Assembly (NCBI GenBank): GCA_964571525.1
Contig: CAZNBY010000001.1
Coordinates: forward strand, 90,329-154,328
Length of the DNA: 64,000 bases
From: an uncultured Planctomycetota bacterium
GTDB lineage: Bacteria; Planctomycetota; B143-G9
Direction of reading: 5' to 3'
A program made the position numbers and the translations under genes. Each line of letters starts with the position of its first letter. The first letter of the stretch is position 1. The notes under the pieces are model-generated. The model was not told where the DNA came from and did no database searches. It saw only the letters and a program-made list of their open reading frames with translations. Below are positions 1,308 to 64,000 of the stretch, in pieces.

Positions 1308-2795
1308 ATGATGATTCGATTTCTTGCCATTCTTGCCATACTCGTGTTGTTCTGCCAGAATTCGTGGGCAGAGTCTATTTCATTCCTTAACTCGGGTAAG
1401 GGTAGACTCCGCATGGCAAAGTTTGTCGCAGACGACTTTACCTTTACCGAGGTCGCTGGCGAGCTTTCGATAAAGGACGGCATCATCTCAGTCTCTCAGC
1501 TTACCGCAAAGGCTATGGGTGGGAGCGTGGTCGGTCGCGCTTCTTTCGACCTTAATATCTTTCCGCCCAGCTATGAGGTCGAAATTGACCTGCTTGACTG
1601 CGAGGCTGAGGAGCTTAAACGCCAGATTGACATTGACACATATTTTCTTAACGGCAAACTTAACGGCAGAATCAAAATCACCGGCAAGTTCGACGATGCT
1701 AACCCCACAATGCTAATTACAGGCCATCTTAAAATGACCGCGCGCGAGAACGACATTCTTACCTATGCCGAAGCCGACATCACCTATCGCTTGCACCATC
1801 TCACCCTGTCCAATATATACGGCAGAGAGCCAGCTAACGGAACCGTGAACGCAAATCTTGAAATTCTGTTCGAAAAAGGCTCAACGCGCATCATCGGCAC
1901 AGTCGGTTTGCAGGATGTCGGCATTCATACGCTTGCGCGCATCGGCAAAGATGATCCAGAATGGCTTGATGGGCATGTTACCGGCAATTCTGAATTGAGG
2001 CTTTGTTTTGGCAAAGGAATGGTTATCGAGGACTGTCTGACCAACGGCATAATCACCTCTTCGTCATTTACTGTCTTTGGCGTTCCCATCACAGGAGCAG
2101 CGAACTTTACATTCGACGGCGACAGGCTAACCGTGCGCGATTTCGTTGGACAATCGTGTGGAGGCTCTGTTAAGGGGATGTTCTACACCGAAAATGCGGG
2201 TTCTCGCGTAGAGGTTGCAGGAGAAAAGGTTCGGCTTGCAGAGGTATTGAAGGCATTAAAGCTTGGCAACGAGCTTAGCGGTGATACCACTTTTACGACT
2301 GCTTTCGAAACCAAGACAAATGTGCCCGGTTTGACGGGTGACTGGTTTGTTGAGGTAAAGAATGGGCTTTTAACCAAGGCTCCGGGAATAATGAGCGTCG
2401 TAACACTGCTTGGGCTTCCAACCTTTGGGCAGCACGAGTTCACCGAAGGCAAAGCGAAGATGCGCTTCAACGGCAGACGCATAGTGGTTGACGACGCGCA
2501 GCTTGTATCCAAACGCCTTACGCTTCAATACGGCACGGGATATGTTGATTTCGACGGCCCGATGCACATGCAGTTCGACATATACTCCGAGGGAACGCTT
2601 TTAAGCCTTTTGTTGGGAAAGTTTGGGTCGGCGATTGCAAATCTGTTAGATCCGGTATCCAAGGTCTTTAAAGTTGAGATAAAGGGCACTATTGGCGAAC
2701 CTATCGCCTCGATGCGCGCTTTTTCAAAGCGAATTGACAAGGAGGGCGCGCCACCGGAACAACCCACAGAGAACCAGAAAGAAGGGGATAAGTGA
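1308..2795 (+). CDS. Secreted AsmA-like / outer-membrane-assembly-type protein (function uncertain)
   Basis: ORF 1293-2795 (track start is TTG; ATG at 1308 gives MMIRFLAILAILVLFCQNSWA signal peptide). C-terminal region (FDGPMHMQFDI...GTIGEP) resembles AsmA-family C-termini; assignment from memory of family features only. Confidence 0.45.
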   Translation: MMIRFLAILAILVLFCQNSWAESISFLNSGKGRLRMAKFVADDFTFTEVAGELSIKDGIISVSQLTAKAMGGSVVGRASFDLNIFPPSYEVEIDLLDCEAEELKRQIDIDTYFLNGKLNGRIKITGKFDDANPTMLITGHLKMTARENDILTYAEADITYRLHHLTLSNIYGREPANGTVNANLEILFEKGSTRIIGTVGLQDVGIHTLARIGKDDPEWLDGHVTGNSELRLCFGKGMVIEDCLTNGIITSSSFTVFGVPITGAANFTFDGDRLTVRDFVGQSCGGSVKGMFYTENAGSRVEVAGEKVRLAEVLKALKLGNELSGDTTFTTAFETKTNVPGLTGDWFVEVKNGLLTKAPGIMSVVTLLGLPTFGQHEFTEGKAKMRFNGRRIVVDDAQLVSKRLTLQYGTGYVDFDGPMHMQFDIYSEGTLLSLLLGKFGSAIANLLDPVSKVFKVEIKGTIGEPIASMRAFSKRIDKEGAPPEQPTENQKEGDK

Positions 2796-3853
2796 ACAAA
2801 CAGAAAGTTAAAGACATTTCGTCTGGCGATAATTTCTCCGGCGTGTTATTGATTAAGTCAGCGAACTTGATGACCACGAAATCGGGCAATCTGTACATGG
2901 ATCTTGAGCTTGTTGATTCAACCGGACGCATCAAGGCTAAGTACTGGGATGCCACGCGAGAGACCGCAGAGGACTTGAAAGATGGTAGTTTCGCGCTCTT
3001 TCGCGGCTTCGTTGATAAATTCCGTGACGAGCTTCAACTCAAAATAGACAACTATAGCCTTGTCAACGAGAAGGAAATAGACATCACCGCATTCATGCCG
3101 GTTTCGCGTTTTCCTATCGAGGACATGGTGGCGTACCTTCACCGAATTGGCGATTCGCTCGGTAATTCATATCTGCGCAAGTTCTGGGCGCTGATGCTTG
3201 ACGACAAGATAATTATGCAGAGCTTTGTGCGATGCCCTGCCGCGGTAAGTTATCACCATGTGTTTCTTGGCGGACTGCTTGAGCACACCTGCGAAGTGAT
3301 AAGGCTCGGAGATGCAATCGCGGCTATTCGCCCCGAGCTTGACCGCGATCTGCTTCTTTCTGGTGCGCTGTTGCACGATCTTGGCAAAATCGCCGAATAT
3401 TCAAGCGGTCCAGCGTTCACCAATCTCGATGAGGGTCTGCTGCTCAGTCATCTGTACATCGGTGCAGAGATGATAGACCGCCTTGTATCTGAAATCGAGG
3501 ATTTTCCACCCGACATATCGGCAATGCTTAAGCACCTTGTGCTTTCGCACCATGGCACAAGGGAATTCGGCTCGCCGGTTGAGCCTTGTTTCGCAGAGGC
3601 AGTTGTTTTGCACTACATAGACAATATTGACGCAAAGATCAATAACATACGCACGACAATTAACGAGGATGCTGGCAGCGAGGGCGAGATGTTCACTTCG
3701 CAGCAGAGCCGCATGTTAAAGCGGCGCATATTGCGCACAACGTTCCGCCCAGAGCCAGACGGCTACAACCCGTTTGCGCAAACTGCTGAAAAGGAAACAC
3801 CCAAAGAAGAATCAGGGGTAAAGGGTAAGGGGGAAGAACCTAAACTTTGGTAA
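2792..3853 (+). CDS. OB-fold + HD-domain phosphohydrolase (YhaM-like 3'-5' exoribonuclease family)
   Basis: GTG start overlapping upstream stop (operon); HD motifs HHVFLGGLLEHT, LLHDLGK, LSHHGTREFGSP; N-terminal OB-fold-like region. Confidence 0.6.
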   Translation: MNKQKVKDISSGDNFSGVLLIKSANLMTTKSGNLYMDLELVDSTGRIKAKYWDATRETAEDLKDGSFALFRGFVDKFRDELQLKIDNYSLVNEKEIDITAFMPVSRFPIEDMVAYLHRIGDSLGNSYLRKFWALMLDDKIIMQSFVRCPAAVSYHHVFLGGLLEHTCEVIRLGDAIAAIRPELDRDLLLSGALLHDLGKIAEYSSGPAFTNLDEGLLLSHLYIGAEMIDRLVSEIEDFPPDISAMLKHLVLSHHGTREFGSPVEPCFAEAVVLHYIDNIDAKINNIRTTINEDAGSEGEMFTSQQSRMLKRRILRTTFRPEPDGYNPFAQTAEKETPKEESGVKGKGEEPKLW

Positions 3854-3857
3854 AGGC

Positions 3858-4859
3858 CTAATCTTTACCACCACCCACGACATCATGAAGCCTGATCAGG
3901 CCGACGCAGACGCCTTCATCGCTTACAACCGGCAGCACATTGATCTGAGATGAGCGATACTCCATTTTCTTGTACGCTTCGTCGGCAAGCGATTCAGGTG
4001 ATACCGTTATCGGGTTTGCCGTCATAATCGCTGAAGCGTTAAGTTCGAAAAACCGCGCACCCAACTTCAGCATACGCCGCACATCGCCGTCGGTTATAAC
4101 TCCAAGCAACTTGCCGTCAGCATCAACGACATTCAATCCACCGAGCCGGAAGTCAGACAACTTCTCCACAACAGACAGAGCGGGTGCATCTGGCGTCGTT
4201 ACGGGATTTCTATCACCCGAATGCATAAGGTCACTGACACGCAGGTTGAGCCTTGAACCGAGCGAGCCGCCCGGGTGAATGGAAGCGAAGTCTTGAGGAG
4301 TGAAATTTCTAAGCCTTACAAGAGCGACAGCAAGCGCATCGCCCATTGCCAGTGCTGCGGTTGTCGAGCAGGTGGGGGCTGGAACGAGATTGCGAGGGCA
4401 AGCCTCACGCGTAACACCGCAATCGAGCACAACATCTGATTTTCGCGCAAGAGTGGAGTTTGTGCTGCCAACCATGGCTATAAGACTCGCGCCCCTGTTG
4501 CGCAAGAAAGGGATTAAGTTGACAAGCTCTGTCGTCTCACCGCTTTTGGATAGCGCTATTACAATATCGTTCTTAGCGACAATACCCAAATCTCCATGAG
4601 CCCCTTCAGTAGGATGCAGAAACACAGATGGGACACCAGTAGAGCTGAATGTGGCAGAAATCTTCTCGCCAATAATTCCGCTTTTGCCGACACCGGTAAG
4701 AATGACCTTGCCCTTGCAGTCTGCGATCATGCGCACGGCACGGACAAAATCCGCCCCTATTGTCGCTGTAAGGCGACCGACTGCCTCTGCTTCAATTTGT
4801 AGTGCTGAAATGCCTTCTGAAATTATCTCGTCGTCGGTCAAGTTGAGGTGGTCGCTCAT
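3858..4859 (-). CDS. kdsD: Arabinose-5-phosphate isomerase, KpsF/GutQ/KdsD family (SIS + tandem CBS)
   Basis: SIS motifs (VILTGVGKSG, ALSKSGET), C-terminal CBS pair; 333 aa typical length. Confidence 0.85.
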   Translation of the reverse strand: MSDHLNLTDDEIISEGISALQIEAEAVGRLTATIGADFVRAVRMIADCKGKVILTGVGKSGIIGEKISATFSSTGVPSVFLHPTEGAHGDLGIVAKNDIVIALSKSGETTELVNLIPFLRNRGASLIAMVGSTNSTLARKSDVVLDCGVTREACPRNLVPAPTCSTTAALAMGDALAVALVRLRNFTPQDFASIHPGGSLGSRLNLRVSDLMHSGDRNPVTTPDAPALSVVEKLSDFRLGGLNVVDADGKLLGVITDGDVRRMLKLGARFFELNASAIMTANPITVSPESLADEAYKKMEYRSSQINVLPVVSDEGVCVGLIRLHDVVGGGKD

Positions 4860-5356
4860 CTCTCAGATTCCATGCTTCTCTTTTTAGAGCTTATGTTCAA
4901 TTCAAGTTGCACGCGCGAGATCTCGCGTTCGAGATGGCGAATTTCGCGGCGCCAGCGAAGGCGACTTTCAAAGCCGATAACTGAATCGTAGAATTCTTTA
5001 GCCTTGTGTAGCTGAATATTCAATGTCTCAAGCTCTTTTGGAATTCGCACCGAGGCTTTATCATCCTTGTTGCGCCTTGTGCGGCGGCGGGGACGAAGCT
5101 CGGGCGATATCTTTCCACTTCGCCAAAGCTGCCCATAATGTGTGTTGCAGTAACCGCGCGCATGTGCTGCGTTCGAACAACCCGGCACCTTGCATAGCTT
5201 TTTGTCCTTGCGGCCGATGTCTGAGATTATTTGCGAATAAAGCTCCATTTCAGTCGCATGCTTTTCACAGAAACCGTTCTTCGAGGCGGGGCGGTTGCAG
5301 CTACGCACCTTACAAGGTTTGAAGCTCCGTTGATCGGGTGTTGTGTTCTTGTTCAT
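4856..5356 (-). CDS. Hypothetical protein with two tandem Cys/His zinc-binding motifs and basic coiled-coil C-terminus
   Basis: Motifs CKVRSCNRPASKNGFCEKH and CKVPGCSNAAHARGYCNTHY; 4-bp overlaps with both flanking genes (translational coupling in regulator-ZnR-kdsD operon). Confidence 0.5.
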   Translation of the reverse strand: MNKNTTPDQRSFKPCKVRSCNRPASKNGFCEKHATEMELYSQIISDIGRKDKKLCKVPGCSNAAHARGYCNTHYGQLWRSGKISPELRPRRRTRRNKDDKASVRIPKELETLNIQLHKAKEFYDSVIGFESRLRWRREIRHLEREISRVQLELNISSKKRSMESER

Positions 5357-7584
5357 TGCCTTCCAGCCTTTTCTCTATGCCGCCCGACACGCGGGGGGCG
5401 AATGCCGAATTTCTTCATCTTGTTATAAAGCGTTGTGCGGCTGACTCCAAGTTCGTCCGCCGTCAAAGAGCAATTCCACTTGTTGGCCTTTAACTTTGAG
5501 ACCAACAGATCCTTCTCAGGCGCGGCTAAAGCGGTCTTCAGAGTCTGAAGATCAATCTGATGCTCATCTTCTGCCGGTGCAACGGCAATCTTCAGGTCCT
5601 TCGGTTCGATATGCGTTCCGCGCGCCAATATCACAGCCTGCTCAATCACATTTCTCAGTTCGCGAACATTTCCCGGCCAAGAGTAGTTCGTAAGAGCACG
5701 AACCGCGGTATCCGAAAGCTTGACAGACAATCGCTTATGAACTGTAGCGAACTGCTCAACAAAGCTGTTTGCAAGCAGTGGTATGTCTTGCCGTCTTTCG
5801 CGAAGTGGTGGTATCGGTATTGATACCACATTTAGGCGATAGAACAGGTCAGAACGGAACTCACCTCGAGCCACAGCCCTGTTCAGATCGCTGTTTGTCG
5901 CCGCAATGACCCGCGCGTTAGATCTCAGCACCCGGGTAGAACCTACAGGCTCGTATTGACCATCTTGCAGAACACGCAACAACTTTGTTTGCACTTCAAT
6001 AGGTAAATTGCCTATCTCGTCGAGAAATATTGTGCCGCCCTTCGCAAGTTCAAACCGCCCTGCTCTATCCTTGATCGCGCTTGTGAACGATCCCTTAACA
6101 TGGCCGAACAGCTCGCTTTCAAGCAAATTTACAGAAAGAGCGCCGCAGTCAACCTTAACAAAAGGCGCATCCTTAACAGGCGAACTGTAATGAATAGCCC
6201 TGGCGACAAGCTCTTTGCCTGTGCCGGTTTCTCCAGTTATCAAAACGGTCGCGGTCGTATTTGAAATGCGGTCAATCATTGAGAAGACAGACTGCATTGC
6301 TTCTGAACGACCGATTATGGTCACATTTCCGAATCTGTCAGAAAGCTCTGCACTAAGCAGAGATACCCTTTCAGCCAATAACTCGCGCTCACGATTAAGC
6401 TCCTTGGCCTGCGTTATCGCCTCGGTAACATCAAGGGCTGAACACAGAAACTCGGGCTTGCTTGCGCGTATTTCTACGGGCGCGGCAGAGATCGAAAGCA
6501 CCTTTCCGTCGAGCAGCGCAATCTCGGCTCTTGCGGTGCCATCGCTCGCGTTCAATCTGCCCATCAGGTCGCGGAACTCTGCTTTTGAAGTCGCTTCCTC
6601 CATGTTAGTAATCAGCTTGCCATCCAAGGTCTTTAGCAACTCGGCGCATCTGCCGTTCAAAGGATCAATGTCACCCTTGTGCGACATAAAGAAGAAGGCT
6701 TCTGCCGCGTTCTCTACTACCTGTCTGAAGCGCTTTTCGGCAGTTGAAAGAGTCTGACGAGCCTTGCAGCGCTCTAAGACCGCGCCAATTAGCAAGGCAA
6801 GCTCTGATGCTGCCGAGCGTCGTTCTTGCCCAAAAAGACCTGATTCACGGCGCAGAAACAAGGCTCCCTCAACTCCTGCGCCCCGCATAACTGGTATAAG
6901 AATTTCATCTGAGGCTGGCTGCGATTCGCCAATCATCTGCGCGACAGAGCGAATACGCTCAAAATCCACAAAGCCGCCTTCAGCCGATGTTGCAAACCCG
7001 CGATTAAGTATTGGCTCGATTGCTCCGTTTTCGACAAGAAGAAAATCGGCAAAATCGGCCTCAAAAGCCGTCTTAACATCGCTTGTGATAACCTCTGCAA
7101 CAGCTCGTATGTCCTCTGCTGCGTTAAGAGCCTTCGCGATGCGATAAAGAGCCGCGACTTTCTCCTTCTCCTTAAAAAGCCGTTCGTGAAGCCGCTTAAG
7201 GCGCATGCCCACCTTAACGCGTGCCAAAAGATCATCGAGCCGAAATGGCTTAGTAAGAAAGTCATCCGCGCCAAGCTCGATTCCGAAATCGCGGTGAGAA
7301 CTTGAAAGCGCGGTTAAAAGTATAACGGGAATATATGGCCGTCCCTCCATCGCCCTTATGCGCCGCAGCGTTTCAAAGCCGTCCATGCCCTCCATTCGCA
7401 CATCTAAAAGAACGATGTCGAAATCTTCGCGGCTTAGCTGATCCATTGCCTCGAAACCTGATTTGACAGCAACAGCCTCATAGCCCTGAGATAAAACAGC
7501 CTCGGCGGTCAAGCGGCAGGCATCGCTCTCGTCATCAACGACGAGAACACGACCCAAAGCGCTCTGGCGAGGCTTTATCAACAT
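5353..7584 (-). CDS. Sigma-54-dependent response regulator (REC + sensory domains + AAA+ sigma-54 activator + Fis-type HTH)
   Basis: Canonical receiver (VLVVDDESD, LLDVRMEGMDG, LLTA, TKP); Walker A TGETGTGKE; GAFTGA-like GHVKGSFTSA; C-terminal HTH LTADELGVSRTTLYNKMKKFGI. Confidence 0.9.
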   Translation of the reverse strand: MLIKPRQSALGRVLVVDDESDACRLTAEAVLSQGYEAVAVKSGFEAMDQLSREDFDIVLLDVRMEGMDGFETLRRIRAMEGRPYIPVILLTALSSSHRDFGIELGADDFLTKPFRLDDLLARVKVGMRLKRLHERLFKEKEKVAALYRIAKALNAAEDIRAVAEVITSDVKTAFEADFADFLLVENGAIEPILNRGFATSAEGGFVDFERIRSVAQMIGESQPASDEILIPVMRGAGVEGALFLRRESGLFGQERRSAASELALLIGAVLERCKARQTLSTAEKRFRQVVENAAEAFFFMSHKGDIDPLNGRCAELLKTLDGKLITNMEEATSKAEFRDLMGRLNASDGTARAEIALLDGKVLSISAAPVEIRASKPEFLCSALDVTEAITQAKELNRERELLAERVSLLSAELSDRFGNVTIIGRSEAMQSVFSMIDRISNTTATVLITGETGTGKELVARAIHYSSPVKDAPFVKVDCGALSVNLLESELFGHVKGSFTSAIKDRAGRFELAKGGTIFLDEIGNLPIEVQTKLLRVLQDGQYEPVGSTRVLRSNARVIAATNSDLNRAVARGEFRSDLFYRLNVVSIPIPPLRERRQDIPLLANSFVEQFATVHKRLSVKLSDTAVRALTNYSWPGNVRELRNVIEQAVILARGTHIEPKDLKIAVAPAEDEHQIDLQTLKTALAAPEKDLLVSKLKANKWNCSLTADELGVSRTTLYNKMKKFGIRPPRVGRHREKAGRQ

Positions 7585-55589: not shown

Positions 55590-56996
55590 TCAGAACTTGA
55601 TGTTGGCAAGGAAGTTATCAACCTCGGGTATGCCGCCCTGGAAGACAAGGTAACCATTTGAAGGCTCGCCCTCGGTGATATCGTGGCAGATGGGGTTCAA
55701 CATGATCTTCTTAACTTCCTCGCGGTCCTCTGTCTGGCCAAGTGCCCAGCCGAGCTTCATATAGGCCGTCTCGGGCAGCATGTTCGCGCACTGCACAACG
55801 CCCAGCTCAAGAAGGTCGCGCCCCGTATCGTACACAAACATCTGCACAAAGCCCCACAGCGTCTGCACGGTCATATAAATATGCATGCCAGAGTCAACGG
55901 CGCGCTTAAGCGCGGGATTGAGCTTACGGTTCACATGCCCAAGACCCGTGCCAGCTATGATAAGTCCCTTGTAACCGTTGTCGCGCAACGAGTCAACAAG
56001 GTCGGGGTCCATGTTCGGGTAATAATATAGTATCGAGACGCGGTCGTTAAAGGTCGGCATGAGCTTCATCTTGCGGCTCTTGTCGCGCCTCTTGTAGTCG
56101 TTCTGTATTGGCTTTATCCAGTTAGGCGACACCATGCCCAGCGGCGTATCACCAATCGTGCGGAATGTAGAACGGTATGACGAGTGCATCTTGCGCACCC
56201 TTGTGCCCCTGTGCAAAAGGTCGTACTGGTCGCTTGTCGGGCCGAACATGCAAACCATCACCTCGGCAAAATCGCTCAATGCGGCGGTGCGAACAGCGTT
56301 GACCAGATTTATCGCCGCGTCGGAAGAGGGTCTGTCGCTCGACCTCTGCGAGCCCACCAACACCACCGGTACGGGCAGGTCTTGGCACATATATGTCAGA
56401 ATCGAGGCCGAATAGTGCATTGTGTCAGTCCCGTGGCCGATCACAATACCATCAACATCGTTCTGTTCTATTTCGTTGTAGATCTCTTGCGCGATGACCT
56501 TCCACTGCACCGAAGACATATCTTCAGAGAATATGCCGAAGATTTTACGCGTTCTCAAATTGCATATATCGGCAAGCTCTGGCACAGCGCTGTAAAGCTC
56601 ACCGGGTGAGAATGCCGGTATAACGGCACCGGTGCGATAGTCAAGGCGCGATGCGATAGTTCCGCCTGTGCCGAGCATGACAACATTGGGGCGGTTTGGC
56701 GAGTATGGGAACTCTTTTTCTGGTATCTTGTACTTGCCCTCTTTGAAGCCAGTTTCGCGAATATCAATTATGCTATTGACGGCGACACCGGTGTTGTAGC
56801 CCGTCGGCAGCTTCAACACAAGGTAACCATCTGGCGATTGCTCGGCGCGGGGCAAAATGATACCGACAAAGGTGCCTTGCATAGCGCGCACAACAACATC
56901 GCTCCAGACCTTAACGCCGAAGCGCTTCATGCACTCTATCGAGTCGCCTTTGTAACCTTTGTACAGCTCTTTTTCAGCTTGAGTTATCGTTGTCAC
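55590..56996 (-). CDS. L-asparaginase-fold protein with GatD-like N-terminal domain (Glu-tRNA(Gln) amidotransferase subunit D-like)
   Basis: Asparaginase motifs TGGTIAS and HGTDTM; about 100-aa N-terminal extension (GYLVLKLPTGYNTGV) resembling archaeal GatD; start set at GTG 56996 with GGAGA RBS. Confidence 0.6.
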   Translation of the reverse strand: MTTITQAEKELYKGYKGDSIECMKRFGVKVWSDVVVRAMQGTFVGIILPRAEQSPDGYLVLKLPTGYNTGVAVNSIIDIRETGFKEGKYKIPEKEFPYSPNRPNVVMLGTGGTIASRLDYRTGAVIPAFSPGELYSAVPELADICNLRTRKIFGIFSEDMSSVQWKVIAQEIYNEIEQNDVDGIVIGHGTDTMHYSASILTYMCQDLPVPVVLVGSQRSSDRPSSDAAINLVNAVRTAALSDFAEVMVCMFGPTSDQYDLLHRGTRVRKMHSSYRSTFRTIGDTPLGMVSPNWIKPIQNDYKRRDKSRKMKLMPTFNDRVSILYYYPNMDPDLVDSLRDNGYKGLIIAGTGLGHVNRKLNPALKRAVDSGMHIYMTVQTLWGFVQMFVYDTGRDLLELGVVQCANMLPETAYMKLGWALGQTEDREEVKKIMLNPICHDITEGEPSNGYLVFQGGIPEVDNFLANIKF

Positions 56997-57191
56997 GACA
57001 TCTCCACTGTTGGGTGATGAACGGGGGCAAACCGCCATTCTACCGGCCGTTAGGGCGCGCGCAACTAAAAGCGGGGGCGGGGAAAGGGGGGAAGTGCAGC
57101 TTCCTTTGTTGACAATATAAAATCAACGCTAAAATACATTCATCAGCATGATTTCGCGTCGAAGGCTTTCTCGCACTACAGTTACGCTATA

Positions 57192-57222
57192 CCTAAGACT
57201 GTATTTTTACACTAGTCTTAGG
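57192..57222. repeat. Perfect 9-bp inverted repeat (CCTAAGACT-N13-AGTCTTAGG) 30 bp upstream of the DUF262 gene
   Basis: Read directly; lies in the 5' leader/promoter region of the 57254 CDS. Confidence 0.6.
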
Positions 57223-57253
57223 AATAATCTCTTACCCAAAACCGGAGATTCCA

Positions 57254-59212
57254 ATGCAGGCCAAAGAGACTAAGCTACAAGACATGATCGAAGGTACTAA
57301 GCAATATGTGGTTCCTCTTTTCCAAAGAACATACAGTTGGTCAGAAACACATTGGGAAACCCTTTGGAAAGACATCTGCGATATCTATGAGTCTGATTCG
57401 AGAAAGAGCCACTTCATTGGTTCTATCGTAAGTATGCAGACTACATCTGTACCGCAAGGTGTATCAAAGTTCCTTCTAATCGACGGGCAGCAGCGGCTAA
57501 CCACAATTTTTATCATCCTTACTCTCCTGCGGGACAAAGCGAATTCAAACAATAATACTGTATTTGCTGAAGAAATAGCAAACACATTGCTTGTTAACCC
57601 ATACAAAAAAGACTACGACTATTTCAAGCTCTTGCCTACACAACACGACCGAGACAATTATAAAGATCTTATTAATGGAACACTGTCAACCTCTAACAAC
57701 CGCATTTCTCGTGCATACCGCTATTTTGATAATAAATTAAAACAAACTGATTTTGACATTGAAAAGCTAAAATCAATTATTTCAAGTGACCTTTCTGTTG
57801 TCAGTATAACTCTCGACGCTGATGATAACCCATATCTTGTTTTTGAAAGCCTAAACGCAAAGGGAAGTCCTCTTACGCAGGCAGACCTGATCAGAAACTA
57901 CTTGTTCATGCGGATTCATGTTAATGACCAAAACGCAATTTTTGATAAATATTGGCATCCCATGCAAACAGCATTAGACGATAAACTCACAGAGTTCATT
58001 CGCCACTATTTAATGGATAAGGGAAGCGTTATTCGTCAATCTGATGTATATTTTACCATTAAGGAGGCGGTATCTGCTGACAATGTTATTGATTACATGA
58101 AGCAAATGCATATATATTCACAATATTATAGTCGCCTGCTTAATCCTGACGAGGAACCTGAATCGTCCATAAGAAAATATCTTAAGCGTTTGAATATAAT
58201 CGAGGTGACAACAGCATATCCATTTCTGCTTAGGATGTATAATTATTATGGATGCGGAACAATCAGTAGAAGTGATTTCGTCCAAATATTATCTACCACG
58301 GAGAACTATTTAATCAGGCGTCTAATTTGCCATGTCCCAACAAATCAGCTTAGTCGTATTTTCGCTTCTTTATACCCACAGATTAAAGGCATCGCTGGCC
58401 CTAATATACCAAAAGAATATGAGAGTCTTCTTGTAATGAAGCAATATCCACGAGACTCTGAGTTTCGCGCAAAATTTAAGGAATATAGATTTTACGCTGC
58501 TGGTGAGCGGGCGGCAAGGGCGAAATTGGTACTTGAATCAATAGAGAACAGCTTTGGGCATAAGGAACACATTGATTACAATAATGTTTCTATTGAGCAT
58601 ATCATGCCTCAGGTATTGACATCTGAATGGCGGAAGGACCTTGGTGATGAAGCACAAGATATACACAGCCTTTTGCTTCATACTATCGGCAACTTGACGC
58701 TCACAGCATATAATTCGAATCTATCAAATAGCGAGTATCCATCCAAGAAGAAGGTATATCTGCAGAGTCATCTTGAAATTAATAAGTACTTCGATGGTGT
58801 TGATGTTTGGAATAAGGAGAGCATCGAAAAGCGAGCTGATGTGCTGGCCGGAATCGCAATGAGAATCTGGCCATATTTTGGAGTTGAATTTTCTGAACAG
58901 AGTGTTACAAACACAAAACCGAAATCTGTTCGAATATTAGGTCAAATATTTGATGTCGACTCATGGCGAGATGTGCTTGAATGCACGATGAACACCGTTG
59001 CGGAGCTTGAGCCTGCGAAATTTAACCGGATAATCAGTAGCTACCCCCGATATTTTAGCAAGCATCAGGACAAGTTGAGATGCGTGCGGAAGTTAAGAAA
59101 TAACCTGTTCTTAGAGGTTAACCTGTCCGCGAACGACATTCAAAGATTATGCCATCAGGCGATTCAGAGCATCGAACTCACTAGCGACGAGTGGTCCGTC
59201 GATTATGAATGA
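57254..59212 (+). CDS. DUF262 (ParB-like NTPase) + DUF1524 (HNH/His-Me finger) protein, GmrSD-like type IV restriction candidate
   Basis: N-terminal DGQQRLTT motif; C-terminal IEHIMPQ ... GNLTLTAYNSN nuclease-like motifs; gene is conspicuously AT-rich compared with flanks. Confidence 0.7.
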   Translation: MQAKETKLQDMIEGTKQYVVPLFQRTYSWSETHWETLWKDICDIYESDSRKSHFIGSIVSMQTTSVPQGVSKFLLIDGQQRLTTIFIILTLLRDKANSNNNTVFAEEIANTLLVNPYKKDYDYFKLLPTQHDRDNYKDLINGTLSTSNNRISRAYRYFDNKLKQTDFDIEKLKSIISSDLSVVSITLDADDNPYLVFESLNAKGSPLTQADLIRNYLFMRIHVNDQNAIFDKYWHPMQTALDDKLTEFIRHYLMDKGSVIRQSDVYFTIKEAVSADNVIDYMKQMHIYSQYYSRLLNPDEEPESSIRKYLKRLNIIEVTTAYPFLLRMYNYYGCGTISRSDFVQILSTTENYLIRRLICHVPTNQLSRIFASLYPQIKGIAGPNIPKEYESLLVMKQYPRDSEFRAKFKEYRFYAAGERAARAKLVLESIENSFGHKEHIDYNNVSIEHIMPQVLTSEWRKDLGDEAQDIHSLLLHTIGNLTLTAYNSNLSNSEYPSKKKVYLQSHLEINKYFDGVDVWNKESIEKRADVLAGIAMRIWPYFGVEFSEQSVTNTKPKSVRILGQIFDVDSWRDVLECTMNTVAELEPAKFNRIISSYPRYFSKHQDKLRCVRKLRNNLFLEVNLSANDIQRLCHQAIQSIELTSDEWSVDYE

Positions 59213-59378
59213 GCAACATGTTCTACGGCACAATGAGGCGGGAGGACTACAACCGGATCATCGAAGGCCAGTCTTAGTACTCTGTCAGAGTCTTTTGTCT
59301 ATGAGGCTCTGCGAGGCATTTACTCGCATCAGCATCAATGCGAGGTCCAATCGCCTGAATATGCGAAATGTACTGCCA

Positions 59379-60119
59379 CTACAACAGAGCACAGCATACT
59401 CCTGTCGGCATTTCATCCCAAGTTTGCCCTTCCAATAAACGCCCAGCCTTCTTTTTGTGAACCCCTCCCCATTGTTTGAAGAAGAACGGGACATTTGCAG
59501 CGACACACTGATCGCGTATATCCAATACCCACTTCTCTGACATTGGCCTTGCGCCTGGGCCAGATTCACCGCCAACTATCACCCAATCAATGCCTTCAAG
59601 GTTCAGGTTCGGTATCGGCCCGAGAAGGGGCTCTAAGGACAGGAATTTTAAAAACGCCCCTGTATTGCGAAGGTCGTCAATACGGTGTATGTAGTCTGCT
59701 GTTTCAACGCTCGTTCCCATCCAGATGTTGCTGGCCCAAGTCAGGGATTGGCTTAATTCGAGCGTTCTTTCCGGCCGCTTTGTCAGGATCTGAAATTGAT
59801 GCCAGTGTGCCCGGTTCATTACATCGAAGGCTCGTTCGATAAACCATACCGGCACATCTGCGTGAAACAGGTCGCTCATAGAATTGACAAAGATAACCTG
59901 AGGGGTTTTCCAATGCAAAGGTAATTCGAGTGTGCGTTCGTGTATTGTAAGACGAAAGCCATTTACATAATTAGCCTGCCCCATGGCTTGCAGTCGCTTG
60001 GCCATGCGCTCGGCGTAGCAGTGTTTGCAACCTGGGCTGACTTTTGTGCAGCCGGTTACAGGATTCCAAGTGGATTCAGTCCACTCGATTGAGGACTTAG
60101 TGCCCATGGTTCTCCCCAT
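59379..60119 (-). CDS. Phage Gp37/Gp68 family (DUF5131) three-Cys-motif protein
   Basis: N-terminal [27 protein letters not shown] signature. Confidence 0.55.
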
Positions 60120-60336
60120 GCCTTGCTCTGAGCGACCTCAAAAAGTGACAACCAAATACATTTTACACATTGGCTTTTGTGTTATCAACAAGCCCGATGA
60201 AAATGCCAACCTATCTTCCGAACGGCCTATATTGGGCGTTCGTGCAGGTGGAATGATTCTCATTCTGCTACTGTGTGGGCATATTACTCCGAGGGAACAA
60301 ACCCCTTTGGCACAGTAAATTACCAAGTTCTGACAT

Positions 60337-62319
60337 TCACTCTTTGTCGGCATTAACTAATGCACCAATCTCTTCCATGCATCGCTCAGCAGTCTTTAGA
60401 GCACTGGCAACTATGCGTTGATGCTCAGCGATATCGGCTTTCAGTTCCGGCGAGTCTTCCTCTTCTTTCTTTATTCGGTTAACCCATTGAGCGTACTTAC
60501 TGTATGACTCTGGATACTCATCGGCAATCTGATCTATGCGTGCTTCGGAAATCGCTTTAAGTGCTTTATATTCTGCGCTTTGCGAGTACTCGTATAGGTT
60601 CCAAGGGTAGTTACCATTCATGACAAGGACTTTTTTGTACCAAGCAGATATACTGTTGTGCAGTATCATCGGTTCAACTTCAATTACTTTCGCGTCCTCT
60701 GCTGGTTCGATGCACAGAATCCCAACTGGGAACCGAGCCCCTTTATCCCTAACTCCTGAATATATTAGAACCGAGTAGAGTTTCGCCACACACTTATCGA
60801 ATCTATAGAATATCGCGGGAGAGAAATACCGTTGAACGGCCTCAGCATGAGTAGCGAAAAGCGTTACCCCGTTCGTTCCCCGCAGAAACCTGTGAACTTT
60901 ATCACCCGAATACTTTTGAAAGCCGTCGGTTGTGAAGTCGTATGATGTTTCATGCCCGATTTTTACTTGTTCACGCTTCCAATCAAACTGGAGCATACCG
61001 TACTTTCGGTTTATCCATTTGAAGGCGTCAAGATCTCCAAGTAGCGAAGGATGGCAACTCACATCCTTCTGCAGGCAGTCGTAGTTTCCCCTCGATAGGG
61101 AGTTTGTCGCTCCAATTATCGAAAATGCCATGGGATATACATGGTCAGACTCAATGCGAGTGTCTTGCTTACCAATAGGTGTGAAGTCTCCAAGAAAAAG
61201 ACCCTCAGGAGCCTCATACTCCTCAAGCAGCTTCAGCCCAAAATCCATATTGCTGTATTTCTGCAGACATCTCTGCGTGTACATTTGCTTAATGAACAAG
61301 TCAGAGAACATGGCCTCGATCTTTGCGGGCGCAATTCCACACAGTTTCCCACCTATATTATAGAAGCACGAGAAGTATTTGCTCAGCGCTTTAAACGCTA
61401 CCGGCGTCGTGGAGTATCTGTTGTATAGGAGCACGCCGATTACCTGCATCTTGATCTCAGCGGTAAGGTTATCGAAGTCCACTGTGAAAACATGCCTTTC
61501 CTCTTCAATTTCAGCAATAAAATCCCTGCTGATAAAGTCGTTTAGAAACTTTGCCAGAAGAAAGTTATCCCCTGCAAAAGCCTCGACCGGTGGCTCAACA
61601 GGAAACACCTCTTTGAAGGCAACATGCTCGCATAGCCAAAGTGAGTGCGCGATTATTGCAGGGATTCCGACCGCCTGACCGAGTGATGCTTCCCAAGCCG
61701 AAAGCCTTTTTGAAAGTGAAGTCTCGGTCTCAGGCAAGTGAGAGGTTATCTTTCGCAGTTCATCATCGAAATCGAGTTTTGCATACGGATTATCTGTGAG
61801 TAGATAATACTCACACGCCAGAGGCAACCAATAGTCTTGGTCTAAATGCCCATCATTGCATATTTCATAACTGAGTAAGTTTCTCACAAACGAGCCGCGG
61901 CTCTTCAGATGAAACAGCAGAGTTTGTCTTCTTTCACCCTCCACTGCATCAATAGCGCTAAGCAGACATAAGTCGTAGCAGAATCGAAGCCAATGCATTT
62001 TTACAGGTGGGAAGACGATCCTGCCGGGAACATTCAAGACCCCGCCATCCATATCTCGTATTGGATAGTGGCCACTGCTTATCAATTGTTCGCCAATAGA
62101 AGCGAATCGTACATGCAGGACATGGGGAGACATCTCCCTCATTTCATCAAGCGTCGCAATAGACATCTCGGCTTTCATTGCCTTGATTAGTTTCGCGACC
62201 TGTTCAATTGAAGGTCTGTCGGTAAGCGACTCGAATACAGCCAATGCACTATCCTCGGCATGCGTGTTTGACAATGCCAGTACGACACAAATGAAGGATG
62301 CAAGTACGACCCGCTTCAT
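60337..62319 (-). CDS. Secreted hypothetical protein (660 aa), paralog of the next gene
   Basis: Signal peptide MKRVVLASFICVVLALSNTHA; shares block FSPAIFYRFDK with the 62710-64000 CDS (FRPAVYYKYER). Confidence 0.45.
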   Translation of the reverse strand: MKRVVLASFICVVLALSNTHAEDSALAVFESLTDRPSIEQVAKLIKAMKAEMSIATLDEMREMSPHVLHVRFASIGEQLISSGHYPIRDMDGGVLNVPGRIVFPPVKMHWLRFCYDLCLLSAIDAVEGERRQTLLFHLKSRGSFVRNLLSYEICNDGHLDQDYWLPLACEYYLLTDNPYAKLDFDDELRKITSHLPETETSLSKRLSAWEASLGQAVGIPAIIAHSLWLCEHVAFKEVFPVEPPVEAFAGDNFLLAKFLNDFISRDFIAEIEEERHVFTVDFDNLTAEIKMQVIGVLLYNRYSTTPVAFKALSKYFSCFYNIGGKLCGIAPAKIEAMFSDLFIKQMYTQRCLQKYSNMDFGLKLLEEYEAPEGLFLGDFTPIGKQDTRIESDHVYPMAFSIIGATNSLSRGNYDCLQKDVSCHPSLLGDLDAFKWINRKYGMLQFDWKREQVKIGHETSYDFTTDGFQKYSGDKVHRFLRGTNGVTLFATHAEAVQRYFSPAIFYRFDKCVAKLYSVLIYSGVRDKGARFPVGILCIEPAEDAKVIEVEPMILHNSISAWYKKVLVMNGNYPWNLYEYSQSAEYKALKAISEARIDQIADEYPESYSKYAQWVNRIKKEEEDSPELKADIAEHQRIVASALKTAERCMEEIGALVNADKE

Positions 62320-62709: not shown

Positions 62710-64000
62710 CTACCGCAACTCCTCAAGGTGGTACTTGTCGTAAAGCTTCTGCCATGCTTCGCGAAGCTTGCCGCCGGTTGTGTCGGTGTTTTCAAGGTTT
62801 ATTGCTTCTGCTCTATCGAAAATAGGCTTGTTGGCCTCGGCCTCTCTAAACTCCTTCGCGCTCCAAAGCATGTCTCTTCCGTTGGGGATGCCAGCACGGC
62901 AATACCACGCATTTAACCTGTAATATATCAGCCCGGCCTTAACCTCGCTTGCAGGTTCGTCACCCAACGGTGTAATCTCCACAACACAAGCGGCGTTGTC
63001 ATGCCAGCACAGGCTGGTGACCGAATAGTAGTCTGAAAGCACATAGATGCGCCACTTAGTACGCTCGTATTTATAATATACCGCTGGCCTAAAATACTGC
63101 TTGAATAACAGGTTGCCACCCATCTTATCGAGGTTGGATATGCCATTTAGAAACCGTTCGGCCCATCCGTCTGCTATCATCTCGCCAAGCGCTTCGGGAA
63201 AGACGGGCATCGCTTTGAACGCACTGCCCACAGTGCGTGTTCCTATGCATCTTGGCGGTTCATTCTCCTCGAAGTATTTTTGCGACCATTCGTAATGATC
63301 GAGGTCAAACAGCAGGGTCTCCAATGAAATGGTCTTTGTCTCAAGTCGGCTGCCCTTAAAATCGCCGCGAATATAGAAATATTGTGGGTGCACGAAGTCC
63401 CTTTCGATCTTGGGCACCATGTTTGGATCGTACTCGACTCCGCCACAAAACCACGCCGGACCCGATTCGCCTTCCTCCACAAGCCTAAGCTTATGTGATA
63501 CAGGCAGTTGTTTCGGCTTATAAAGGTAATCTAAAACCTTGTTCATAACAACCCTTGACGCTTGCATAGCTTCTGGCAACAACAGGTGTTCACGAACTGG
63601 CGAATAAAGGCCATTGCACAACATATTAGTCAGATCAGTGTTCATGCTTGACATGTTTTCCCAAATCTCATTGTCATCCATACGGGTGTAGAGCAGGTAG
63701 GATACGAGGAAGTACGCGCTTCGATTGTAACTTGACAGAACGCCTGTATTGGAGAATTGCTCAAGGATTTCATAGAAGACTTCTTTCTTTCCGTAATTGT
63801 CAACAAATGCCTTCAATGGTTGATTGAACGATGGTGGAAGCGCTTTTTCATCCAGATCTGTCACATCCTCAGGCGTGATGTTCACGAAGAACCATGACAT
63901 CAACGCGATATTCATGAAAATGTTGTTTGTGTTGTCGAAGTATAGCTTCTGCCATACTTCAAGTTGATTAGCCTTGTCACCTGTAATGTTCAGTGCATCG
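62710..64000 (-). CDS. Hypothetical protein, paralog of 60337-62319; 5' end runs off right window edge (partial)
   Basis: Track ORF starts at Met 63915, but hand translation shows the frame stays open upstream to position 64000. Confidence 0.45.
   Translation of the reverse strand, partial: DALNITGDKANQLEVWQKLYFDNTNNIFMNIALMSWFFVNITPEDVTDLDEKALPPSFNQPLKAFVDNYGKKEVFYEILEQFSNTGVLSSYNRSAYFLVSYLLYTRMDDNEIWENMSSMNTDLTNMLCNGLYSPVREHLLLPEAMQASRVVMNKVLDYLYKPKQLPVSHKLRLVEEGESGPAWFCGGVEYDPNMVPKIERDFVHPQYFYIRGDFKGSRLETKTISLETLLFDLDHYEWSQKYFEENEPPRCIGTRTVGSAFKAMPVFPEALGEMIADGWAERFLNGISNLDKMGGNLLFKQYFRPAVYYKYERTKWRIYVLSDYYSVTSLCWHDNAACVVEITPLGDEPASEVKAGLIYYRLNAWYCRAGIPNGRDMLWSAKEFREAEANKPIFDRAEAINLENTDTTGGKLREAWQKLYDKYHLEELR

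Follow-up and report, generated by a model that had tools for sequence, protein, structure and literature searches.

The 64,000-nucleotide stretch of DNA analysed here (the window) comes from an uncultured Planctomycetota bacterium and contains a gene of the DUF5131 family next to a gene for a type IV restriction enzyme of the GmrSD family. The question raised by this locus is whether the two neighbouring genes form a functional unit and, if they do not, what kind of enzyme the DUF5131 protein may be and which protein is its usual partner. A first-pass annotation, made from the sequence alone, had placed the gene in the phage Gp37/Gp68 family, had proposed that the segment from 57 to 64 kb is an accessory island, and had raised the possibility of a partnership with the nuclease. 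The account favoured by the present analysis, and considered fairly probable as a whole, is that the DUF5131 protein is a radical S-adenosylmethionine (SAM)-like enzyme that has been kept by selection, that it is normally encoded together with the protein TcmP and takes part in DNA chemistry, that it stands alone in the window, and that GmrSD is a separate element. The features on which the question turns are the following.

59379..60119, minus strand: DUF5131 gene (COG4422, 'phage Gp37/Gp68'), 246 amino acids, intact, solo copy
60018..60050, minus strand: C-X6-C-X2-C three-cysteine motif, codons 24-34, presumed [4Fe-4S] ligands
57254..59212, plus strand: GmrSD-family type IV restriction enzyme (DUF262 + DUF1524), 652 amino acids, GmrSD_N E 5e-37, GmrSD_C E 1e-28

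Identity and conservation of the DUF5131 protein

The window gene is an intact, real member of a widespread and known family. The Pfam profile PF07505 (DUF5131) matched the protein from end to end, with residues 8-238 aligned to profile positions 1-243 of 243 (E 4.4e-103, 344.5 bits, cut-off 28.9), which agrees with the identity that the first-pass annotation had read from the N-terminal signature. The protein was also matched by PHROG 2045 (E 7e-96) and by the PADLOC models PDC-M41B (E 3.3e-121) and PDC-M30B (E 1.4e-116). The open reading frame (ORF) begins with ATG, and a second ATG at residue 5 gives a 242-residue form, which is the form called in the contig of a sister strain; an exact look-up of the 242-residue form found it not to be on record.

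The three-cysteine motif, which had also been noticed in the first pass, was identified as C24-X6-C31-X2-C34, and C24, C31, and C34 were invariant among 60 aligned homologues. The C-X6-C-X2-C spacing was kept in all 120 of 120 close homologues, in 132 of 140 diverse cluster representatives, and in 53 of 53 viral homologues. There were 93 invariant columns among the 60 homologues, including the three cysteines of the motif, C205, G183-G184-E185-S186-G187, and a C-terminal FFKQWGG, and every one of the 93 was kept in the window protein.

Family members were found well beyond this lineage: 41,038 clusters at 50% identity matched the window protein at E ≤ 0.001. The family does occur in phages and mobile elements, as had been expected, with DUF5131 present in 181 of 50,697 phage records and at 59 IMG/VR loci, though the closest relatives (70-79% identity) were chromosomal copies from more than 10 bacterial phyla. 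Two long members, P0268 (736 residues) and P0271 (711 residues), carried C-terminal extensions of about 480 residues, with one weak FGase-like match. Extra DUF5131 fragments were seen beside the full-length gene in two loci (L012 at 1967-2131 and 4585-4926, and L036 at 6880-7113), an arrangement that suggests that the gene was duplicated locally or is decaying there.

Probable radical SAM character and predicted structure

DUF5131 most likely belongs to the radical SAM superfamily as one of its non-canonical branches, with spore photoproduct lyase (SPL) as its nearest solved relative, and its three cysteines most likely hold a [4Fe-4S] cluster. In the classification of RadicalSAM.org, DUF5131 forms Megacluster-5-2, beside SPL at 5-3 (PMC9477430). 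The NCBIfam model TIGR04471 (radical SAM mobile pair protein A) matched residues 19-216 of the window protein with 87.4 bits (E 9.5e-25) and did not reach its equivalog cut-off of 355 bits; at the level of sequence, such a match indicates relatedness and not membership.

The AlphaFold model of the protein had a mean predicted local distance difference test score (pLDDT) of 73 and a predicted template-modelling score of 0.74, with core values of 80-95. The model is a partial beta/alpha barrel in which the cysteine loop, modelled at a pLDDT below 50, follows the first strand, where radical SAM enzymes have theirs. When it was searched against the PDB with Foldseek, SPL entries were returned at ranks 2-7 (probability 0.96-0.99), and in the viral structure library BFVD the matches were other members of the family, proteins with a GP88 domain, and a number of radical SAM proteins. 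Sequence searches of the PDB with the single DUF5131 protein and with a 60-sequence profile gave no meaningful match. Judged from the model, the likeness between DUF5131 and SPL would be one of fold only.

TcmP is the recurrent partner of related DUF5131 genes

TcmP is the true recurrent partner of the DUF5131 clade to which the window protein belongs. A TcmP hidden Markov model (HMM) was built iteratively, seeded with the gene upstream of DUF5131 in one related locus (L003; TIGR04474 match E 1.5e-61), and the count was restricted to the 71 related loci with more than 1 kb of sequence upstream of DUF5131. The search for TcmP, whose partner models had been mentioned in the first-pass annotation, proved to be the deciding check. 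TcmP was present in 62 of the 71 loci (87%), and in 61 it was the next gene upstream, in the same orientation, at a distance of -81 to about 0 nucleotides from DUF5131. In the two nearest relatives outside the strain (79% and 78% identity), a TcmP of 373 or 383 residues with a GMT-wHTH domain ended 1 nucleotide before the DUF5131 start or overlapped it by 11 nucleotides. In one of the two closest relatives (L153), a DNA photolyase gene was found directly after TcmP-DUF5131 on the same strand (2779-4140, plus strand); this was a single case, noted here since ultraviolet damage is also what the best structural neighbour of DUF5131 repairs.

The TcmP profile matched structures of RlmJ, a 23S rRNA m6A methyltransferase, with an E value of 7e-7, and the match spanned motif I (YIDxFAGxG) and motif IV (FLDPxG). 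The GMT-wHTH domain (PF22560) was detected in 15 of the 62 TcmP proteins. TcmP also matched the PADLOC models PDC-M30A/M41A, and in PADLOC the pair of TcmP and DUF5131 is listed under PDC-M30 and PDC-M41, two untested candidates for defence systems. The searched literature offered no experiments that show a defence role for either of them. The only functional hint found for the module is a neighbourhood in Sinorhizobium meliloti, where a TcmP gene adjoins the defence gene hna and is co-regulated with it (PMC12445080).

The coupling of the two genes extends to viral genomes and to fused proteins. In Gordonia phage Jablanski, gp42 (DUF5131) abuts gp43, a 'methyltransferase' that is TcmP (E 2.5e-32), in the integrase-repressor region. 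On viral contigs, TcmP was found beside most DUF5131 genes whose products were at least 56% identical to the window protein, and beside none of the longer forms below 50%. P0306 (558 residues) is a natural fusion of DUF5131 with TcmP, while P0367 (519 residues) consists of ParB_N and HTH_ParB fused to DUF5131, and its domain composition points to DNA as a possible target.

The two members of the module differ greatly in conservation. DUF5131 proteins were 70-79% identical across more than 10 phyla, and the co-operonic TcmP proteins could barely be aligned, with a mean column identity of 18% (alignments A1 and A2; loci L002-L085). A hyper-conserved enzyme with a hyper-variable partner is typical of a catalytic unit combined with a fast-evolving specificity unit.

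The window copy is solo and has probably been maintained

No TcmP was detected among the ORFs or six-frame fragments of the 64-kb window (best E 3.6). Because TcmP is missing here while nearly all close relatives have it, the window DUF5131 is a derived solo copy. In terms of the PADLOC candidates PDC-M30/M41, the B component (DUF5131) is present and the adjoining A component (TcmP, TIGR04474) is absent. Solo DUF5131 genes made up about 13% of the related loci; the others adjoined toxin-antitoxin genes, an HNH gene, an insertion sequence (IS) transposase, or housekeeping genes, and no alternative partner was shared among them.

The sister strain, represented by Logan contig L001, encodes a DUF5131 protein 98% identical to that of the window. 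The two genes differ by 9 synonymous and 4 non-synonymous substitutions, for a ratio of non-synonymous to synonymous rates (dN/dS) of 0.12, a value indicative of purifying selection, and the 217-nucleotide gap upstream of DUF5131 is 98% identical between the strains. The following site lies in this gap.

60160..60188, minus strand: sigma-70-like promoter match TTGATA-17-TAAAAT, from a consensus scan, 10/12, in the 217-nucleotide gap

Promoter-like sites were no more numerous in this region than in shuffled sequences, which makes the site weak evidence; its presence suggests that DUF5131 may have its own transcription start. The dN/dS of 0.12 and the conserved upstream gap with its promoter-like site together argue for a maintained, separately transcribed gene.

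GmrSD is cargo of an exchangeable slot

The first-pass annotation was right about the adjoining DUF262/DUF1524 gene, which matched both GmrSD_N and GmrSD_C, carries the DGQQR motif, and gave strong matches to the PADLOC models Orf5, HEC-06, and mREase_IV, all of them type IV-like. The partnership that it had left open was not borne out. GmrSD is an independent, horizontally acquired cassette, carried as exchangeable cargo in a variable slot, and not a partner of DUF5131. The two genes are convergent, with 166 nucleotides between their stop codons, and the RNA fold of this 3' intergenic region was no better than that of shuffled sequences (z -0.09). Gene by gene, GmrSD was the only compositional outlier, with a GC content of 0.40 and a GC content at third codon positions (GC3) of 0.40, as compared to 0.50 and 0.54 for DUF5131, 0.53 and 0.66 for gatD on the other side of the slot, and a GC content of about 0.49 for the window overall and about 0.50 for the genome. 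Beyond GmrSD_C the protein continues for about 110 residues (approximately 541-652), and this C-terminal extension has no family match.

Alignment with the sister strain located the edge of the cassette. L001 aligned to window positions 60957..59217 at 95.2% nucleotide identity (blastn), and the alignment ended 5 nucleotides after the GmrSD stop codon. Beyond this breakpoint, L001 encodes a 95-residue ORF, a NotI-like endonuclease, and a D12-class methyltransferase in place of GmrSD. The 95-residue ORF is intact in L001 (1681..1968, minus strand), where it ends in ...MFYGTMRREDYNRIIEGQ, and a relic of it is left in the window.

59218..59277, plus strand: relic of the 95-residue ORF, its last 19 codons plus stop, MFYGTMRREDYNRIIEGQS*, marking the cassette-swap breakpoint
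55590..57038, minus strand: gatD (core housekeeping), NCBIfam GatD equivalogs E 1e-147, bounding the variable slot opposite DUF5131

Only the last 19 codons of this ORF remain in the window, and therefore GmrSD replaced part of an earlier arrangement. The relic maps the breakpoint of the swap between GmrSD and the NotI-like restriction-modification pair to within a few bases. Only short repeats, at chance level, were found around GmrSD. The arrangement with GmrSD is genuine and did not arise during assembly, since a 4.4-kb Logan contig (L090), which carries the 246-residue form of DUF5131, was 100% identical to window positions 56712..61112.

Co-occurrence of DUF5131 with DUF262/DUF1524 genes, by which the proposed partnership could be judged, was absent from all 144 related loci examined (1.8 Mb). 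Searches with phmmer found no GmrSD in the 85 genomic and metagenomic DUF5131 loci (1.18 Mb) even at an E value of 10, where the DGQQR motif occurred once, in a 192-residue ORF of L067. There was likewise none in the 59 viral DUF5131 loci (0.61 Mb), and the Pfam families listed for the 141 proteins directly beside the TcmP-DUF5131 module did not include GmrSD. Enzymes of type IV are known to work on modified DNA unaided, without a partner that modifies it. GmrSD and DUF5131 are neighbours because they share a variable region in which defence cassettes are swapped, and not because they share a mechanism.

Defence genes around the TcmP-DUF5131 module

The module is often located in variable, defence-rich regions. 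The Pfam families of the 141 immediate neighbours included TIR_2 (4), N6_Mtase (3), ResIII (3), and Methylase_S, HepT, AAA_21, and phage integrase (2 each), mixed with housekeeping families, and no third partner recurred beside the module in this set. The immediate neighbours were also compared with 141 control proteins located 6.5-10 kb away, using PADLOC matches at E ≤ 1e-10, and about 10% of the proteins matched in both the near and the far set. Co-occurrence with defence genes in general appeared modest: no enrichment at the immediate flank is claimed, and the comparison is one of near positions with those at 6.5-10 kb, not with whole genomes. Matches to MADS models were seen near the pair at several loci, those to mad2 and mad5 in proteins directly beside the pair and those to mad3 and mad6 in proteins 6.5-10 kb away, and TIR-domain proteins were direct neighbours at four loci (L006-L085 in both cases).

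Other genes and boundaries of the region

Upstream of DUF5131 the window contains two further genes on the same strand.

60337..62319, minus strand: 660-residue protein specific to this lineage, N-terminus signal-peptide-like, next gene upstream of DUF5131
62710..64000, minus strand: distant paralogue of the 660-residue protein, frame open to the window end, at least 466 residues in L088

The 660-residue protein holds the position that TcmP has in relatives, but it is unrelated to TcmP and gave no signal with the TcmP HMM. A single relative (99% identity) was found among 5.8 billion proteins, and at DUF5131 loci the gene was found only in the sister strain and was absent from all others. The two upstream proteins are indeed paralogous, as had been proposed, at a distant level (22.6% identity over 266 residues, E 1.7e-11, BLASTP); the relative position given for DUF5131 was reversed, since it lies downstream (3') of both on the same strand. 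The length of 401 residues assigned to the second paralogue also did not hold, because its frame is open to the window end and covers at least 466 residues in L088, and its secretion is not visible in the window. Neither paralogue matched any Pfam, NCBIfam, or PADLOC model. From their sequences they are predicted to constitute a lineage-specific family of secreted proteins. As alternative partners of DUF5131, both the 660-residue protein and the one of at least 466 residues were rejected, being confined to their own lineage and without a family match.

On the other side of the slot, gatD encodes an archaeal-type Glu-tRNA(Gln) amidotransferase subunit D in a window that is otherwise bacterial (ParA/ParB, a sigma-54 regulator, Sec-type signal peptides). 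GatD has thousands of bacterial homologues, and Krumholzibacteriota supplied most of the named ones at 66-68% identity, besides one sequence each from Zixibacteria and Clostridiales and several labelled only 'bacterium'; an exact look-up of the window GatD found it not to be on record. In a related species (L089), whose GatD is 80% identical, the gatD flank on the GmrSD side differs and is syntenic with window positions 1.3-7.6 kb, which makes 57.04 kb a synteny break. Relative to the window (about 7.6-57.0 kb), the gatD-HEAT-repeat block of L089 is inverted and abuts the counterpart of the 1.3-7.6 kb block. A large inversion or rearrangement is suggested by this difference, and one of its ends would be at about 57.04 kb, the very place of the GmrSD cassette. 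No tRNA was found in the 64-kb window.

The proposal of an accessory island from 57 to 64 kb held for one part of the segment. The GmrSD cassette is clearly foreign by its GC content of 0.40 and is replaced in L001, and the junction at 57.04 kb is a synteny break relative to the related species. DUF5131, however, has a host-like GC content and is conserved together with the upstream 660-residue gene in the sister strain.

Proposed mechanism and alternative explanations

In the mechanism proposed here, DUF5131 would be a radical enzyme that uses a [4Fe-4S] cluster and SAM, with the C-X6-C-X2-C motif holding the cluster on a partial beta/alpha barrel. In its own clade it normally works as part of a module of two tightly coupled genes, in which it comes second and is preceded by TcmP, with a predicted RlmJ-like class I methyltransferase fold and often a winged-helix domain. 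The module is mobile, with copies in chromosomes, prophages, and phages. The chemistry is most likely a SAM-derived radical modification or processing of a DNA base, for which TcmP may provide target recognition or a first methyl-type step. The solo DUF5131 of the window would probably be expressed from its own promoter and act either alone or with a partner whose gene lies at another place in the genome, and GmrSD would be a separate type IV cassette in the variable slot between gatD and DUF5131.

Several points weigh against this account. The Pfam Radical_SAM profile PF04055 did not match the DUF5131 protein at E ≤ 0.01, the cysteine spacing is CX6CX2C in place of the canonical CX3CX2C, the cysteine loop of the model has a pLDDT below 50, and the invariant GGESG follows strand 6 of the model, whereas the canonical position is after strand 2. 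A protein outside the radical SAM superfamily, in which the three cysteines bind zinc or serve a structural role and the barrel performs non-radical (for example hydrolytic) chemistry, is on balance quite unlikely. Neither DUF5131 nor TcmP was the subject of any biochemical or genetic work in the searched literature, and because no characterised member of either family was found there, we infer that DUF5131 binds the cluster, cleaves SAM, and acts on DNA, and likewise any defence role. The absence of TcmP applies to 64 kb of the genome, and TcmP may be encoded elsewhere; the dN/dS of 0.12 rests on only 13 substitutions. Finally, both variants of the slot carry restriction genes, which leaves room for a loose, non-specific association of DUF5131 with defence regions.

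A closer association, in which DUF5131 and GmrSD constitute a two-gene defence unit, with DUF5131 for example modifying host DNA or sensing infection and GmrSD acting as the effector nuclease, has been largely refuted and appears very improbable. The short distance of 166 nucleotides, the place of DUF5131 in PADLOC candidate defence systems, and the fusion in P0367 to a ParB-like domain, which belongs to the superfamily of the GmrSD N-terminal domain, are all in keeping with such a unit. They are outweighed by a convergent orientation that does not allow co-transcription, by the compositional difference (GC 0.40 and 0.50), by the sister strain, which keeps DUF5131 and has a NotI-like restriction-modification pair in place of GmrSD from a breakpoint 5 nucleotides past its stop, and by the count of 0 in 144 related loci. 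It is also general knowledge that a self-modifying partner would be harmful to type IV enzymes, which cut modified DNA. If the window gene were instead a decaying remnant of a TcmP-DUF5131 module with no function alone, the absence of a TcmP that 87% of related loci and the nearest relatives carry would be expected, as would the IS transposase that occupies the place of TcmP at one other solo locus. An intact frame that keeps every column invariant in 60 homologues, a dN/dS of 0.12 between strains that differ at 5% of nucleotides, an upstream non-coding region that is 98% conserved with a promoter-like site, and the persistence of solo copies, TcmP being absent from about 13% of related loci and from all distant phage forms, make decay unlikely. 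It is decidedly unlikely that DUF5131 makes a small-molecule antiviral product in the manner of the prokaryotic viperins, rather than acting on DNA, since its partner has the RlmJ-like fold of a nucleic-acid methyltransferase, often with a winged helix, a fusion to ParB and HTH domains exists, its best structural neighbour is a DNA-repair lyase, and phage copies are located among DNA-metabolism or methyltransferase genes.

Within the favoured account of a selected, radical SAM-like DUF5131 protein, a bolder possibility is that DUF5131 is the catalytic half of a widespread DNA-directed module that makes a new DNA modification or antiphage system, and that the solo copy is autonomous, for example in an SPL-like repair or modification; this would be speculative and is itself unlikely. 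If it were true, an autonomous activity on DNA would matter for the restriction cassettes that are swapped beside DUF5131. The analysis removes a tempting but false pairing of DUF5131 with GmrSD and leaves the window gene as an ordinary member of its family. The family represents a real gap in knowledge, with about 41,000 clusters and no functional study in the searched literature, and the combination of a putative radical SAM enzyme with a winged-helix protein of methyltransferase fold would be a promising subject in the search for new mechanisms of DNA modification or defence. Natural solo copies such as this one show that DUF5131 can be retained without an adjoining TcmP. Of some interest are the solo state itself, the cassette swap with its mapped breakpoint, and the pairing of a hyper-conserved enzyme with a hyper-variable partner.

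Comparison with known systems

Compared with the PF07505/COG4422 family, the window protein has the same length, the CX6CX2C motif, GGESG, and the C-terminal FFFKQWGG. It differs in lacking the TcmP gene that accompanies most of its own clade, and it instead follows a gene for a lineage-specific secreted protein. The PADLOC candidates PDC-M30/M41 have the same B component as the window, but their A component is absent from it, so that the candidate system is incomplete here. The neighbouring nuclease shares both domains and the DGQQR motif with the DUF262-DUF1524 enzymes of the GmrSD/BrxU/SspE type, and resembles stand-alone modification-dependent nucleases, with no recurrent link to DUF5131.

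Among characterised enzymes, the comparison is with SPL (PDB 4fhc), a radical SAM DNA-repair enzyme that is 8-10% identical to DUF5131 in structural alignments. SPL has CX3CX2C, while DUF5131 has CX6CX2C and is about 100 residues shorter. A further parallel is the TIGR04471 family, which, like DUF5131, consists of mobile, paired, three-cysteine enzymes; these are coupled with pair protein B, which is not the same protein as TcmP, the partner of DUF5131.

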